DNA from: a virus
Taxonomy: Duplodnaviria > Heunggongvirae > Uroviricota > Caudoviricetes
Strand: one strand, 5' to 3'
DNA: 24,668 nt
Virus record (IMG/VR): IMGVR_UViG_2563366840_000014
Span: 1 to 24,668 of that record
The translations under genes and the position numbers were made by a program. Positions 1 through 5,156 of the stretch are shown here, piece after piece. Numbering within the stretch: position 1 is the stretch's first letter; the number at the start of each line of letters is the position of its first letter. The notes under the pieces were generated by a model that was not told the DNA's origin, ran no database searches, and was given only the letters and a program-made list of their open reading frames with translations.

Positions 1-708
1 ATGTGGGTCAATAAGTATATTGACGATTGCACTGATGAGGATTTAAACGATCGTGACTTTATTGCATCAGTTGTTGACCGGGCTATTTTTCATTTCGCGA
101 TTAATAGTATATGTAATCTTGGGGATAATAAAGATGCAATGCCCATTGAACAATGTACTTTTGATGTAGAAACTAAGAATGACCTTCCCTCCACGGTTCA
201 GCTATTTTATGAGGAATCTAAGGATAATGAACCTTTAGCGAATATACATTTTCAAGCAATAGGTTCTGGTTTTTTAACGTTTGTTAATGCCTGCCAGGAA
301 CATGATGACAACAGCTTAAAATTATTTGCTTCGCTGTTAATTTCACTTTCATATTCTAGTGCCTACGCAGATTTATCAGAAACAGTGTATATTAATGAAA
401 ATAATGAGAGCTACCTGAAAGCTCAGTTTGAAAAATTATCTCAACGTGATATGAAGAAGTACCTGGGAGAGATGAAGCGTCTGGCTGATGGGGGAGAAAT
501 GAATTTTGATGGCTATCTGGATAAGATGTCACATCTGGTGAATGAAGGAACGCTCGATCCTGATATTTTAAGCAAAATGCGAGATGCTGCACCACAATTA
601 ATTAGCTTCGCGAAGTCGTTTGACCCAACCTCAAAGGAAGAGATTAAAATACTTACAGACACTTCTAAATTAATTTATGATTTGTTCGGGGTTAAATCGG
701 AGAAATAA
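1..708 (+). CDS. yjbM: Hypothetical protein, host flank (235 aa); matches the length and position of the E. coli gene immediately upstream of dusA
   Basis: Full ORF with ATG at 1 and stop at 706-708; AT-rich; followed by a hairpin terminator; lies upstream of a dusA promoter/5' fragment as yjbM does in E. coli K-12 (synteny and length recalled, sequence identity not verified). Confidence 0.55.
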   Translation: MWVNKYIDDCTDEDLNDRDFIASVVDRAIFHFAINSICNLGDNKDAMPIEQCTFDVETKNDLPSTVQLFYEESKDNEPLANIHFQAIGSGFLTFVNACQEHDDNSLKLFASLLISLSYSSAYADLSETVYINENNESYLKAQFEKLSQRDMKKYLGEMKRLADGGEMNFDGYLDKMSHLVNEGTLDPDILSKMRDAAPQLISFAKSFDPTSKEEIKILTDTSKLIYDLFGVKSEK

Positions 709-749
709 TATGTGAAGTTCTTCGATAGTATGGAAGGCATTATATAAAA

Positions 750-778
750 GGACCCAATATTTATTGGGTTCTTTTTTC
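750..778 (+). terminator. Rho-independent terminator after the 1-708 ORF
   Basis: Stem ACCCAAT / ATTGGGT with a TTT loop, followed by a run of six T. Confidence 0.6.
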
Positions 779-1070
779 TCTATCAATGCTATTAGCAGGG
801 AGATATATCACCAGAGTTTAATGTGTGATTTTTTATTTATCGTCGAACCTGGATTGTTTATCATTGGCCTTAACAAAGTTAACGGCTAATAAGATTATTT
901 CCATCACTTCGTGAGAGCTTCATGCCTTGAGAGGATCTCAATTTTCTTTTGCAATGAGACAGGCGCTTCCTGTTGTTATGGTATAGTACCCCGCTATTGA
1001 GCCTCCTGAACAGTGATGCTGAATAACATAACCCCATGATATATCGATAAAATAATCTCTACATTTGAAA

Positions 1071-1193
1071 ATGCACGGTAATTCTGAAATGCAAAAAATC
1101 AACCAAACCAGCGCAATGCCTGAAAAAACTGACGTTCACTGGAGTGGTCGGTTTAGCGTTGCACCAATGCTCGATAGGATGTACCGTTTTTGA
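1071..1193 (+). pseudogene. dusA: Displaced native 5' end of dusA (tRNA-dihydrouridine synthase A): first 35 codons, then an out-of-context tail and stop
   Basis: Translation MHGNSEMQKINQTSAMPEKTDVHWSGRFSVAPMLD matches the DusA N-terminus as I recall it, then reads RMYRF-stop instead of the conserved WTDRHCRYF; the break is at about 1173-1178. Confidence 0.75.
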
Positions 1194-1283
1194 AAAACAA
1201 ATAGTTATATACTTTGTGGGAGCCTATTGGGAACCCGGCGTTTTCATTTCAAGGTGTAATCCATACGCGGCTTAAGAATGAGA

Positions 1284-1289
1284 TATAAT
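1284..1289 (+). promoter_or_regulatory. Candidate -10 hexamer (TATAAT) for the 1319-1855 cargo gene
   Basis: Perfect TATAAT about 30 nt upstream of the ATG; the -35 element at 17-nt spacing is poor, so this is weak. Confidence 0.3.
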
Positions 1290-1318
1290 GCGACTTTTAG
1301 TGTTCCGCTTGAGAGGCC

Positions 1319-1855
1319 ATGATGCTTACCCTGGACGAGATAGGTCAATCAGTACGTAACAATATCCAGTTGATTATTGATCATGTCGGCTTACCTCTTG
1401 CTGTTGGTCCGCTCAGTGATGATGATTACAAGATTCTGTGTGGTGGCTATGGTGAGCTTGAATGGGACTATGCGTTAAGTACCTATGGCAACTCCAGAGA
1501 AAAGTATGAGTTCTGCATAAAACTTGTTCAGCAAGGTCGGGTTCAGGGAATACCATCAGGAGCAGCAATTTGTGTTTATGGGGTTGAAGAAAACATCTTT
1601 CGTATCCATATGATCGAAAGGTTTTCTAGAGAAGATGAATCTCACCCATTGAAAGGGCGCATGGTTTTACTCACTCTTATGAGTGCTTTTATATTTTGTA
1701 AAGCTGTTGAATGTAAAGTTGTCCACATTGTAGAGCCAGTACCAGAACTGGTGCAGTATTACGAGTCTTTTGGTTTCCGCATGGAACAGTGCGGTTATGT
1801 GATGTCGGCAGTCATTGATGAGCTGCAGGATATCTTTCTTAAATTTGCTCAGTAG
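1319..1855 (+). CDS. Hypothetical cargo protein (178 aa), AT-rich; weak GNAT-like C-terminal motif (YYESFGF)
   Basis: ORF with RBS GAGAGG before the ATG; lower GC than the phage backbone; sits between the att junction and xis; no family recognised with confidence. Confidence 0.6.
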   Translation: MMLTLDEIGQSVRNNIQLIIDHVGLPLAVGPLSDDDYKILCGGYGELEWDYALSTYGNSREKYEFCIKLVQQGRVQGIPSGAAICVYGVEENIFRIHMIERFSREDESHPLKGRMVLLTLMSAFIFCKAVECKVVHIVEPVPELVQYYESFGFRMEQCGYVMSAVIDELQDIFLKFAQ

Positions 1856-2051
1856 GTATAGACGAGAAGGGTCTACAAATTGTAGGATACCCGTCCAGAT
1901 TACCTTAAAGGTACATCTATGGCAGTCGTTTTGTGCTTAAACTACTAAGAAACGATGTCACCAATCGACATGATCGATTGGCATAAGTTAGCGAAACAAG
2001 CTAGCTTTAAAGAAAGGGTTAGAGACGCCTTTACTGTCTCGGGAGTTTTCT

Positions 2052-2225
2052 ATGAAAGATCAAAAAGCAACCAAGCCACAGGTTAAGTTCGACACAATGA
2101 AAGCATTCGCAGGTATGGGTGCTGCTGTTGAAGTTCTGATGAAGGCTGCTCCTAATGCGTTCACTCACGCTACTGTCTCTGGTAAAGAGCAGCAGGGTAA
2201 GCTTCGTCGTCGCAAAGCAGCATGA
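2052..2225 (+). CDS. Small hypothetical protein (57 aa), Lys/Ala-rich
   Basis: ATG at 2052 preceded by GGGAG; TGA at 2223-2225; immediately followed by a hairpin terminator; below the ORF-track length cutoff. Confidence 0.4.
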   Translation: MKDQKATKPQVKFDTMKAFAGMGAAVEVLMKAAPNAFTHATVSGKEQQGKLRRRKAA

Positions 2226-2244
2226 TCATAGCTGGTGCTTTTTG

Positions 2245-2272
2245 AAAACCCGCCTTCAGGCGGGTTTTTTCT
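2245..2272. terminator. Bidirectional rho-independent terminator between the convergent small ORF and xis
   Basis: AAAA, then stem CCCGCC / GGCGGG with loop TTCA, then TTTTTT; A-run on one side and T-run on the other. Confidence 0.7.
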
Positions 2273-2554
2273 TTAGTGATGTTCTTTGTCCTTCTGTTTG
2301 ACTGTTCTGACCTGTTCCCACTCGATACGTCCTTCTTCTCGCCTTTTGTCTATGTATTCCGCAAGATCCTGAATATTGATGCAACGTTTTGCTTTTTGTG
2401 ATGTGCCGATGCGATATGTTGGAACGGGCAACTTACAAGCGTTTGCTTTTGCTTCTGCCGTGGCTGGACTCATACCAAAGTACTTTTGGCTAACTGCTGA
2501 GAGTTCAATGTTTGGGGTATTGAATTCAGCCATCAGTAAAAACAAGGTGTTCAT
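2273..2554 (-). CDS. Excisionase-like DNA-binding protein (PrtN/pyocin-activator family, 93 aa)
   Basis: Start at internal Met (MNTLFLLMAEF...) with GGAGA RBS; small basic protein with ...IQDLAEYIDKRR... typical of this family; placement near the prophage end mirrors torI in KplE1. Confidence 0.7.
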   Translation of the reverse strand: MNTLFLLMAEFNTPNIELSAVSQKYFGMSPATAEAKANACKLPVPTYRIGTSQKAKRCINIQDLAEYIDKRREEGRIEWEQVRTVKQKDKEHH

Positions 2555-2590
2555 AATTTTCTCCATCAAAACCGGCTGCACCCGGGAAAA

Positions 2591-3166
2591 TTATAATTCT
2601 GTGCTGGTGGCAGGAATTAATTTCTGCCAGATAGCGGAAACATATTTTGCCTGATGACGGGCATCGGCCAGGGCGTTGTGCCGTTCGCCATCGAAAGGCA
2701 TGTCCATTTTGGGGTCGAATCCGATGGAACGCCCAAGCGTAACGATCGTGCGTACATCGTGGTCATTCCAGTATGCCCACGGGCAGATTTGTCCTGCTCG
2801 CTCATAAGCTCCACGTAAAATTACGTTGTCGAAGGTGGCTCCGTTACCCCAGACTTTTAAATATTTCGTATTGTCTGCGTGCCGGTTAATGAAATGATTT
2901 AGTTCTGAGAGAGCATCGCTGATCGACAAAGTATCATCAATACAGATTGCAGCTCGTGCTTCAGAGCTTTGTTTCAACCACCACAGGATGGTATCGCCGT
3001 CAGGTGTAGCTCCTTGCCCCATAGCACTTCCCAGGCTAACAACCGTATAGAATTCTTGTCCGATGTCTCCGGTTTCTGGAGTGAAGAACACCGCGCCAAT
3101 GGAAACGATCGGTGCATCCTTATTTTTCCCCATCGTCTCAAGGTCGATCATTAAGTTGTTCATCAC
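2591..3166 (-). CDS. DnaQ-like (DEDD) 3'-5' exonuclease
   Basis: N-terminal MIDLETMG... motif and conserved acidic residues; ATGA overlap with the upstream gene. Confidence 0.75.
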   Translation of the reverse strand: MMNNLMIDLETMGKNKDAPIVSIGAVFFTPETGDIGQEFYTVVSLGSAMGQGATPDGDTILWWLKQSSEARAAICIDDTLSISDALSELNHFINRHADNTKYLKVWGNGATFDNVILRGAYERAGQICPWAYWNDHDVRTIVTLGRSIGFDPKMDMPFDGERHNALADARHQAKYVSAIWQKLIPATSTEL

Positions 3167-4122
3167 TTCACCTCCTGCGGCGGTTCCGGTAGCGGCATCC
3201 AGTGGGTTACATTGCGGCTCTGTGTTTCGAAGAGCTCCTCACCATTGCGGACGACATCAAAAAACTCACCGTCCCGATATTGCGCATAAAGAACGAATGC
3301 GCCATCACATAAAATAATTACGTGCTGACCATCATCTGGCATTCGCTCACTACAGCTTATCCAACCATCCGGAGTTACCGGAGAGTTGCCGGGTTCTTTA
3401 ATGTGCAAGCGAGGCTCACCATCTTTTGGCTCAGGCCACTGGCGCTCCATGTTGATCTTCAATTTATCTTCCATAGCAGCGGTAATTTCAGCATCGCTGA
3501 TGCCAGCACGGCGCTGTGCATCCCACAACAGAAACTGCATATCAGCCCACTCGCTAAGATCGTCTGGTTCGGCTGCGGCTTCCAGTGCCTCTTTTGAGAG
3601 ATGTTTCAGCGGGCCAACTGGACCAACACAGCCAAACGTCTTATCTGACCATTCAGCATGGCGCTGCCGGATTAAATTGCGCAATTGAAGCGATGATCCG
3701 TTCTCCTCTGACAACTCTTCATGATTACTTGCAGGTTCGACACCATGAAGCATGGCGGCGCGGCAGGCATTCCAGCCTCTCACCTCTGCAATAGCGGCAA
3801 CAGCATCGACCGCGTACATTTTAAGAGGGTTGGGCATTGGTTTTTCTTCAGGTACTACTGGCACTGGAGGGGCGGCGTATACTTCAATTGTCCCATTATC
3901 AATAGGCCATTCCCCATCCTTGATGTAGTCACTTGTGCCATCGACCTGCTGTTCTGCAATGTGGAAAGCACCTATTGGTTTTGCTTCCAGTGATGCCAGT
4001 GCAATTTTTAATGCGGTAAGCATGTTGTTTTGATCTTCATCGAGTCCGAACGGTATTTCATCCCGTGCTGACTCAATGATGGTAATCGTGTTCTGTAACC
4101 ATTCTTTGGTAAGAGTATTCAT
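3163..4122 (-). CDS. DUF550 (MazG-like dNTP pyrophosphohydrolase) plus DUF551 domain protein
   Basis: 319-aa ORF tightly packed in the operon; domain assignment from recalled phage homologues. Confidence 0.6.
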   Translation of the reverse strand: MNTLTKEWLQNTITIIESARDEIPFGLDEDQNNMLTALKIALASLEAKPIGAFHIAEQQVDGTSDYIKDGEWPIDNGTIEVYAAPPVPVVPEEKPMPNPLKMYAVDAVAAIAEVRGWNACRAAMLHGVEPASNHEELSEENGSSLQLRNLIRQRHAEWSDKTFGCVGPVGPLKHLSKEALEAAAEPDDLSEWADMQFLLWDAQRRAGISDAEITAAMEDKLKINMERQWPEPKDGEPRLHIKEPGNSPVTPDGWISCSERMPDDGQHVIILCDGAFVLYAQYRDGEFFDVVRNGEELFETQSRNVTHWMPLPEPPQEVK

Positions 4123-4124
4123 AA

Positions 4125-4316
4125 CTATTTCACTTTAATCTCAATATTTCGCAGCTTTATGTCTACTGGTAGGTCTGACTTTCCTGTTAACGCTAATGCG
4201 AGATTTTCAGGAGTAATGAGAGCAGTTATTGTTTTCCCTATTGCCAGACGAATAATCATTCGTATCTCGCGATCGTCACATGCTCCCGGTCGAACAATTG
4301 ATATTTGTCCGATCAT
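4125..4316 (-). CDS. Small hypothetical protein (63 aa)
   Basis: Start at internal Met (MIGQISIVRPG...) one nt after the upstream stop; stop 3 nt before the next gene. Confidence 0.4.
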   Translation of the reverse strand: MIGQISIVRPGACDDREIRMIIRLAIGKTITALITPENLALALTGKSDLPVDIKLRNIEIKVK

Positions 4317-4317
4317 C

Positions 4318-4629
4318 TCACTCTCCTTTAGTGCGCAAATGGTTTTTCCAGCGGTTTTGCGCCGCGCTGCCCTTATCTCGGACTCCCTCTCTGGCAATTC
4401 CAGAAAATGAAAACAACACCACACGACGATTGCTAACTCTCAACCACTGGCTGGGATAGCAAAGTCTGTATACACGGGAAATAAGCATCTTTGCTTTACG
4501 GTTTTTCATCTTACTGCGTACCCTTTCTCTCGTCTGTTTTGCGCCACGGTGTGGTTTATATGAGTCCCAGTCTCCCCACGTTGCTTTCTCTGCCGCCTCA
4601 CGCAGTGCCTGATGGTCAATTTTGCTCAC
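4318..4629 (-). CDS. Hypothetical protein (103 aa), occupies the position of yfdT in KplE1
   Basis: GTG start with strong AAGGAGG RBS; GTGA overlap with the upstream gene stop; C-terminal half is low-complexity so the 3' part is uncertain. Confidence 0.5.
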   Translation of the reverse strand: MSKIDHQALREAAEKATWGDWDSYKPHRGAKQTRERVRSKMKNRKAKMLISRVYRLCYPSQWLRVSNRRVVLFSFSGIAREGVRDKGSAAQNRWKNHLRTKGE

Positions 4630-5156
4630 TGGTTGCCTCCTTTTCGAAGCTGGGCGGCGAACAAACGTACACCAGACGCTTCACTGCGTAGAAACTTAAC
4701 GGCATAATCAAAACCACCTCGTTCTGCGTCGTCTGCTCCGTTGTCGAGGTTATCTGCGTACATCTCTACCCCCTGCGCCCGTACTTCAGCCAGGAAAGCA
4801 TCGGTGGTTGGGGTTTCGCTGTGGTGTAGGGCATCGTTGATAATCATTGCAGCAACTCCGGCCTGCCCTGCATCCGTTACCGACACATGCTCAAGAGTTA
4901 CAGCCATTGCATGTTTCAGCCCCGCATTCTCCGCCGCCAGCGCCGAAAACTTCTCGTGTGCCAACTTAACAGCCGCATCAGCCTGCTTAATTGACTCAAT
5001 CGCTTTCTGTTGGTCTTCGGCCAGCGCCGCGCACTTGGCCTCAGCTTCAGCAAATTTACGCACCAGGTACTCAGCGTTTGTTTCGTTCACTTTCAGATCT
5101 CGCGGTACACATTTCCCGCGAAGAAACCCTTCCATTTCGAAAACATTCATGCGCAT
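4626..5156 (-). CDS. Ead/Ea22-like protein
   Basis: 176-aa ORF with an Ala/Glu-rich coiled-coil-like middle and a C-terminus resembling lambda Ea22-like proteins (recalled). Confidence 0.55.
   Translation of the reverse strand: MRMNVFEMEGFLRGKCVPRDLKVNETNAEYLVRKFAEAEAKCAALAEDQQKAIESIKQADAAVKLAHEKFSALAAENAGLKHAMAVTLEHVSVTDAGQAGVAAMIINDALHHSETPTTDAFLAEVRAQGVEMYADNLDNGADDAERGGFDYAVKFLRSEASGVRLFAAQLRKGGNQ

Follow-up and report, generated by a model that had tools for sequence, protein, structure and literature searches.

The integrase-distal junction of an Escherichia coli prophage in the 5' end of dusA, and a possible earlier replacement of the same gene end

The closest described relatives of the element studied here are the islands with a dusA-associated integrase (DAI) reported by Farrugia et al. 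2015 (NAR, PMC4482086), who found the integrase of phage mEp460 among the phage matches to this family. DAI islands insert into the 5' end of dusA, leave the original 5' end of the gene orphaned, and carry a replacement 5' end coding for a substitute of the beta-1 strand in the TIM barrel (PMC4482086). Their att repeats are 21 bp long and semi-conserved, and a prtN homolog is present in 60 of 94 dusA islands, which amounts to 64% and is not universal (PMC4482086). For one such phage, the Stx phage 1720a-02, Balasubramanian et al. 2019 (PMC6328086) showed by experiment that it integrates 100 bp into dusA of Citrobacter rodentium, and the 7-bp core, the regeneration of attP and the rebuilding of dusA were likewise all established experimentally.

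Here we analyse a stretch of 24,668 nucleotides, positions 1 to 24,668 of IMG/VR virus record IMGVR_UViG_2563366840_000014 (hereafter the window). Its positions 1071-1193 are almost certainly the integrase-distal junction of a temperate prophage that was placed in the 5' end of dusA, a tRNA-modification gene of E. coli, by site-specific recombination with a tyrosine recombinase. [quoted passage not shown]

The junction in the 5' end of dusA and its att sites

The open reading frame at the junction extends from the ATG at 1071 to the TGA at 1191-1193 and its product is MHGNSEMQKINQTSAMPEKTDVHWSGRFSVAPMLDRMYRF; in its longest mechanical form it starts at the TTG at 1065. The initial annotation had described this frame with its RMYRF-stop ending, had equated its first 35 residues with the DusA N-terminus, had given WTDRHCRYF as the continuation of DusA, and had taken everything to the right as phage DNA and the gene to the left as yjbM. 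All of this was borne out: the frame is present as described, 35 of 35 residues are identical to K-12 DusA, whose continuation is the one given, the DNA right of 1174 aligns to prophages and to phage mEp460, and the left-hand gene belongs to the DUF2713 family, the name under which yjbM is annotated in E. coli genomes. At the nucleotide level the window follows K-12 dusA without mismatch from nt 1 to nt 104, and the first differences are nt 105 and 106, which correspond to window positions 1175 and 1176. The phage's own dusA-like ORF in the mEp460 attP closes with the identical RMYRF-stop. Annotation pipelines list the dusA 5' fragment of occupied genomes as a pseudogene, a partial tRNA-dihydrouridine synthase, and the junction explains this entry. 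The promoter region of host dusA presumably still lies upstream of the orphaned fragment.

A megablast search with window positions 700-1400 matched 4,372 of 5,426 complete E. coli genomes and left 1,054 without a match. Alignments to unoccupied loci, which have an annotated dusA and a DUF2713 gene, end at window position 1174, and in 337 of the 5,426 genomes the match crosses the junction into the same phage DNA. The comparison with unoccupied dusA loci that had been suggested as a check therefore came out as anticipated, the segment aligning to dusA and breaking at the reported place. As in DAI islands, the insertion lies in the 5' end of dusA at a conserved att site and leaves a remnant 5' end.

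The position of strand exchange can be narrowed by means of the far junctions of related prophages (see below). Phage-specific differences in far-junction dusA end at nt 96, and those in the window begin at nt 105; because all 19 substitutions of the far-junction gene fall in nt 1-96, the crossover is confined to dusA nt 97-104, i.e. window 1167-1174. The initial annotation had put the att junction at about 1173-1178, a range that holds for the onset of divergence from attB, at 1175, but not for the crossover interval, which lies further to the left. The eight bases of this core, ATGCTCGA, encode the M-L-D of the conserved APMLDWTD motif, and they are shared by all four sequences in an alignment of the window junction, the K-12 attB, the far junction of the E. 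coli YD786 prophage and the mEp460 attP, in which both junctions combine attB with attP sequence, as integration of the Campbell type predicts. The published 7-bp core of 1720a-02 lies within GCTCCCATGCTCGACTGGA (PMC6328086); this is the C. rodentium attB on the dusA strand, and the K-12 attB reads GCACCAATGCTCGACTGGA. The core region recurs as an imperfect direct repeat at both junctions, when the window is taken together with the far junctions of its relatives: the window holds only one repeat, GCACCAATGCTCGATAGGATG at 1161-1181, and its partner in the relatives, GCTCCTATGCTCGACTGGACG, has the same 8-bp core.

A predicted attP was assembled from the left half of the YD786 far junction and the window from 1175 onward, and we searched for it in 50,697 phage records. 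It is contiguous in the free phage mEp460, where 383 of 383 nt are covered at 97.9% identity, and it sits there between the mEp460 integrase and the same 178-aa gene that follows the junction in the window. Excision as a circle that regenerates attP and attB, a property of DAI elements, is thus indicated indirectly for the present element, by analogy with the mEp460 attP and with 1720a-02, whose excision was demonstrated in experiment (PMC6328086).

The phage side of the junction begins with a 63-bp arm: the window, mEp460 and two prophages that carry a Panacea-domain gene as cargo are nearly identical up to about 1237 and unrelated beyond, and two of the megablast matches to window 700-1400 end at 1235-1244. 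Within this arm lie two tandem heptamers of the form GGGARCC (Table 1). All five copies of this heptamer in the 6.4-kb mEp460 locus are found in the 233-bp attP region, with 0.98 expected and five or more reached in 0 of 200 shuffles; three are on the integrase side, one of them inverted, and two stand in tandem on the window side (3026-3060 and 3241-3258 of the fetched locus). From this clustering we infer that the heptamers may be arm-type binding sites of the integrase.

Table 1. Features of the window on both sides of the dusA junction
Feature	Position	Strand	Evidence or remark
yjbM (DUF2713), host gene left of dusA	1-708	+	Pfam PF10897, E=4e-166, 1-235 of 235
Terminator-like hairpin after yjbM	746-775	+	Consensus scan only
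Possible trace of ancient integrase start region	977-992	-	TATGGTATAGTACCCC vs TATGTTATAGTACGCC in living elements, 14/16 match
Orphaned host dusA 5' fragment, nt 1-104, codons 1-35	1071-1174	+	104/104 identical to K-12 dusA
40-codon stub ORF	1071-1193	+	35 DusA codons, then RMYRF and stop
Core, crossover interval ATGCTCGA	1167-1174		Common to both junctions, attB and attP
Integrase-distal part of mosaic temperate prophage	1175-24668		Runs past the right edge of the window
Conserved phage attP arm, 63 bp	1175-1237		Kept even in dusA prophages with different cargo
Tandem heptamers GGGAGCC (1218-1224) and GGGAACC (1229-1235)	1218-1235	+	Candidate arm-type integrase-binding sites
First phage cargo gene, 178-aa GNAT-fold protein, phrog_4350	1319-1855	+	phrog_4350, E=2e-103
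57-aa partner ORF of GNAT gene, phrog_2741	2052-2225	+	Downstream of GNAT homologs in Photorhabdus and Edwardsiella, 59-69% identity
Strong intrinsic-terminator-like hairpin closing the cargo cassette	2244-2269	+	11-bp stem, 6 GC pairs, then T run
PrtN-family protein, likely excisionase	2273-2581	-	phrog_1300 excisionase, E=8e-40

The far end, the cargo slot and alternative readings of the junction

Four relatives that share the junction were inspected (E2863, YD786, CM2010-0578/1 and MEI148-20EC). Each has 37-43 kb of prophage after the dusA 5' fragment, and at the far end of this prophage a tyrosine integrase gene lies divergent, and about 88 nt distant, from a full-length dusA of 1,038 nt. 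Compared to K-12, the rebuilt dusA of YD786 and E2863 has 19 substitutions in nt 1-96, none in nt 97-212 and the next at nt 213, and the limitation of the substitutions to nt 1-96 indicates that the element supplies a diverged replacement of the dusA 5' end; the rebuilt DusA has about 10 amino-acid changes in its first 30 residues. The integrase of the relatives, 365 aa in length, is 99% identical to that of mEp460, for which the phage annotation cites an INT_Rci domain, and in YD786 it matches the Pfam family Phage_integrase (E=8e-21). The DAI family consists of tyrosine recombinases that adjoin dusA and possess an RHRH tetrad and a nucleophilic tyrosine, with Rci as the closest characterised relative; in the integrase of the relatives MRIGE, HDLRR, GHRS and a C-terminal Y, picked by eye only, are candidates for the catalytic residues. 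In E2863 the integrase gene is frameshifted, which illustrates that individual far ends can decay. Among all 5,426 complete E. coli genomes the far junction, composed of integrase, phage-type 5' end and dusA, occurs in 730 (13%), and dusA is therewith a heavily used integration site of E. coli. No complete E. coli genome matches the window from end to end, the best being YD786 with 90% of the window aligned at 98.3% identity. From the relatives we infer that the far end in the source genome is of the same kind, with the integrase and the rebuilt dusA expected beyond the right edge of the window, as the initial annotation had predicted.

Beyond the cargo genes the window contains a PrtN-family gene, and thus the prtN homolog known from many dusA islands; it carries the RefSeq name 'pyocin activator PrtN family', its counterpart in mEp460 is annotated as excisionase, and an excisionase is likely its product, as judged from these matches. 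The prophage genes further to the right comprise an exonuclease, a cI/cro-like repressor pair, replication, antiterminator and lysis genes, followed by terminase, portal, protease and the start of the capsid gene. The module of integrase, att site, cargo and excisionase is found on quite different phage bodies, namely a lambda-like siphovirus in mEp460, a prophage with the T3SS effector genes espW and espM2 in E2863, and a contractile-tail mosaic in YD786 and the window, and the presence of the same module on different bodies points to modular exchange of the integration module.

The slot between the attP arm and the PrtN-family gene is occupied differently in different prophages. The 178-aa and 57-aa proteins found there in the window have no match in Pfam, NCBIfam or PADLOC. 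The predicted structure of the 178-aa protein (AlphaFold, pLDDT 89.9) has a confident GNAT fold: Foldseek returned 258 PDB matches at E<=1e-3, and all 50 of those listed are GNAT acetyltransferases. The top structural matches include the GNAT toxins KacT, AtaT and TacT, but Gcn5 and RimI reach the same TM-score (about 0.55), and we therefore assign the fold only and no toxin role. The cassette of GNAT gene and 57-aa ORF lies inside a tail-gene cluster in Photorhabdus and upstream of a holin in Edwardsiella, which characterises it as a mobile moron that is not specific to dusA. In CM2010-0578/1 and MEI148-20EC the slot holds a gene for a Panacea-domain protein and one for a small hypothetical protein. 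The Panacea-type slots at 2641-3842 of retrieved locus L005 and at 45598-46646 of L006 are the same slot as window 1240-2270, and CM2010-0578/1 keeps the 57-aa ORF at 98% identity despite having a Panacea-domain gene in place of the GNAT gene. To judge from these sequences, this slot, which adjoins the integrase-distal junction on the inside, acts as a hotspot of cargo exchange.

In this integration strand exchange took place within ATGCTCGA (1167-1174). Host dusA nt 1-104, presumably along with the host promoter upstream, stayed behind as the 40-codon stub, which now reads into the conserved 63-bp attP arm and from there into the phage cargo. The opposite end of the prophage, about 20 kb past the window, is expected to hold the 365-aa dusA-associated integrase; divergent from it would lie a promoter and a copy of dusA nt 1-96, both phage-borne. 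This copy would fuse in frame to the dusA body, and by virtue of that fusion DusA would remain intact, with the same number of changes near its N-terminus as in the relatives.

The junction could, on the face of it, have come about in other ways. The stub might be a pseudogene fragment of non-specific origin, left for instance by a deletion, by IS activity or by the illegitimate insertion of a phage, and indeed only one junction is visible in the window. However, one and the same 8-bp core marks the break in the window and in four other prophages, and also in the mEp460 attP and the published att sites; beside the core, 63 bp of phage DNA are conserved across prophages with unrelated cargo, and the four-way att alignment contradicts such an origin, so that we consider its probability negligible. 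Somewhat less remote, but still quite improbable, is a genuine junction whose far end in this particular genome was rearranged or degraded, by loss of the integrase or by recombination between prophages, with dusA not rebuilt beside the integrase. The mosaic nature of the prophage and the lack of an end-to-end match would fit this, as would the decay seen elsewhere: besides its frameshifted integrase, E2863 has a fragment of an IS3-family (IS1203-like) transposase in its prophage and many genes annotated as partial or frameshifted, and fossil junctions devoid of an integrase occur in other species. Against it stand the four of four inspected relatives that retain the integrase beside a full-length dusA, and the number of genomes with the far junction, 730, as compared to 337 with the near-junction DNA of the window.

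A further proposal is an addition to site-specific integration rather than a true rival to it, and concerns an exchange of promoters, in which the orphaned host dusA promoter and the 40-codon leader would drive the cargo while a phage promoter drives dusA. Cargo and stub are on the same strand, and since no terminator-like site is found from 775 to the start of the cargo at 1319, the first strong one on this strand being that at 2244-2269, read-through from the host dusA promoter is possible. Moreover, the phage's own dusA-type leader precedes the same cargo in attP, and the position is that of the variable slot, with the GNAT gene here and the Panacea-domain gene elsewhere. On the other hand, a promoter scan remained at background (3 found versus 3.9 expected), and the cassette of GNAT gene and 57-aa ORF is placed differently in the phages of Photorhabdus and Edwardsiella, which suggests a self-contained mobile unit, probably with a promoter of its own. 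The idea that the cargo is tied specifically to the dusA promoter is weakened by this same cassette, and we regard an exchange of promoters as rather doubtful.

Origin of the K-12-type dusA 5' end

The 5' end of dusA differs among E. coli strains also where no prophage is present. A K-12 probe with 250 nt on each side of the core, searched against the 5,426 complete genomes, sorted them into three classes. In 3,638 genomes the K-12-type 5' region is uninterrupted and accompanied by yjbLM. In a second class (about 730) the probe matches only from the dusA ATG onward, and these genomes carry the phage-supplied ends. In the third, which includes Nissle 1917, the probe matches only from just before the core, and no K-12-type stub is present in the genome; by subtraction (5,426 - 3,638 - about 730) this class has about 1,050 members, in agreement with the 1,054 genomes unmatched by window 700-1400. 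At least one genome, NZ_OZ038590.1, has a phage-type dusA 5' end with one matching place only and no K-12-type stub, and may represent either a further fossil or a lysogen whose background is of the short type.

Nissle lacks yjbLM and has zur as the immediate neighbour of a shorter, 996-nt dusA (11800-12020 of the retrieved locus, corresponding to window 709-1174), and 133 nt are replaced in K-12 by 1,686 nt that comprise yjbL, yjbM and the dusA 5' end. Immediately upstream of the core K-12 and Nissle agree in 19 of 45 positions, immediately downstream in 293 of 300; the identity between the K-12 and the short type thus switches from 42% to 98%, exactly at the integrase core. In four other Escherichia representatives zur is 209-210 nt from the core, as in Nissle.

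The short form is widespread. Scanning species-representative genomes for a conserved 29-mer of the dusA body yielded 83 stretches, of which 80 were examined. Most Enterobacteriaceae among them possess a short N-terminus of the form M..E.Q..[F/Y]PA[H/Y]RFSIAPMLD, including Citrobacter, Enterobacter, Kluyvera, Trabulsiella, Yokenella, Escherichia whittamii and three other Escherichia representatives, and a few, such as Superficieibacter and Enterobacter sp. BIGb0383, have unrelated N-terminal extensions before the same FPAHRFSIAPMLD motif. The long type, MH[G/D/Q]N...HW.GRFS, is sporadic in the 80 loci. A DAI integrase (70% identity) is 185 nt away from it in Pluralibacter; beside it stand an integrase remnant of 30 aa (E=2e-8) in Salmonella diarizonae and one of 22 aa (E=1e-3) in Citrobacter koseri, and in a Kosakonia group no integrase was found nearby. 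S. diarizonae and S. Infantis agree in 14 of 45 positions upstream of the core and in 294 of 300 downstream; S. diarizonae has kept the ancestral upstream region through the old start codon, after which about 1.9 kb of DNA are inserted. For Kosakonia sacchari (long) versus K. cowanii (short) the corresponding values are 17 of 45 and 258 of 300. A comparison for C. koseri was discarded, being out of register with about 150 of 300 identical positions downstream. The fossil far junctions of S. diarizonae (at about 2861-4780 of the retrieved locus), C. koseri and Kosakonia are set among relatives with the short ancestral end.

The K-12 dusA 5' end itself resembles the phage-borne copies in 36-37 of 45 positions (80-84%) and is similarly close to the S. 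diarizonae copy with the 30-aa integrase remnant. We are inclined to think that the K-12-type 5' end is the fossil far junction of an earlier element with the same core, that dusA has accordingly undergone two successive replacements at this site, and that the N-terminus of K-12 DusA derives from a mobile element; under this interpretation the short 5' end would be the ancestral one. The 1.7-kb yjbL-yjbM segment may be part of the same fossil. Two gaps remain in this account, namely the origin of yjbLM, for which no homolog was found in the phage collection, and the ancestral stub, which is missing in K-12: a simple intact fossil predicts a short-type (B2-type) dusA stub beside zur, which was not found in K-12, and the scenario consequently needs an extra deletion.

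Further traces of an earlier element were looked for in the host DNA of the window. The segment 977-992 (Table 1) may be all that is left of an ancient integrase gene, given its resemblance to the integrase start region of living elements. Its distance from the syntenic position, ahead of the 'host' dusA start, is 12 nt, and within +-30 nt its match was reached in 0 of 5,000 shuffles and by 0 of 600 other window segments. An unrestricted local alignment of the region upstream of dusA in the window against living far junctions gave a background-level score, so that significance was reached only in the test confined to the syntenic position, and tblastn of the integrase against window 1-1174 yielded E=8.6 only. 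yjbM was absent from all 80 dusA loci examined, and a search for YjbM homologs in the phage and plasmid collections, meant to show yjbLM as mobile cargo, gave no phage matches. Of the 7 "plasmid" matches, 6 are records of 0.66-4.9 Mb that are evidently chromosomal; the seventh is a 17-kb Klebsiella oxytoca record. The first base of the window is that of the yjbM ATG. In YD786 (683-1699 of the retrieved locus) and MEI148-20EC the DUF2713 gene is one intact ORF of 338 aa across yjbL and yjbM, and it is annotated as frameshifted in K-12, E2863 and CM2010-0578/1.

Alternatively, the phages might simply have copied their 5' end from a K-12-type host. This would leave unexplained that the break between K-12 and Nissle falls exactly at the integrase core, and it would likewise leave unexplained the fossils with integrase remnants in other genera. 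In our literature search no paper was found that describes the K-12 dusA 5' end or yjbLM as element-derived, which, the search being incomplete, is weak evidence of novelty. If the K-12-type end is indeed a fossil, the N-terminus of the 345-aa K-12 DusA, including an extension of 14 residues over the ancestral form, was left by a mobile element, with consequences for the annotation of its start codon, for structure-function work on DusA, and for our understanding of how integrative elements permanently reshape their target genes. Serial replacement of this kind is a modest and testable addition to the known mechanism.

Comparison with described dusA elements

The analysis fixes one prophage boundary to the base, which is useful mainly for annotation, and it predicts a functional dusA in this lysogen. 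The gene is occupied in 13% of the complete E. coli genomes, and the elements that target dusA overwrite about its first 100 bp each time. The junction in the window is an instance of what is already known: its mechanism is published and its configuration is common.

Compared to the DAI elements (PMC4482086), the window element is alike in its insertion into the 5' end of dusA at a semi-conserved att site, in the orphaned 5' end and in the prtN homolog, and, by way of its relatives, in the replacement 5' end and the divergent integrase at the other junction; nothing of substance differs. Because the integrase lies outside the window, the membership of the element in this family rests on the relatives. 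Phage mEp460 (NC_019716.1) shares the attP region, the GNAT and 57-aa cargo, the excisionase and the exonuclease, which match window 1068-3215 at 98.5% identity, whereas the rest differs, about 2.4 kb of the fetched 6.4-kb locus being alignable to the window. The window element is a mosaic lambdoid prophage with a contractile-tail module, in contrast to mEp460 and the E2863 prophage with their lambda-like tails, and it follows from the differing tails that the same module of integrase, att site and excisionase moves among different phage bodies. The Stx2 phage 1720a-02 (KF030445.1) has an integrase side that is 99.5% identical to that of YD786 over the 197 nt up to the core, but it is Stx-converting and was studied in Citrobacter rodentium, and no stx genes were noted in the window. 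The 1720a-02 paper names its junctions in reverse, with int beside attL (PMC6328086).
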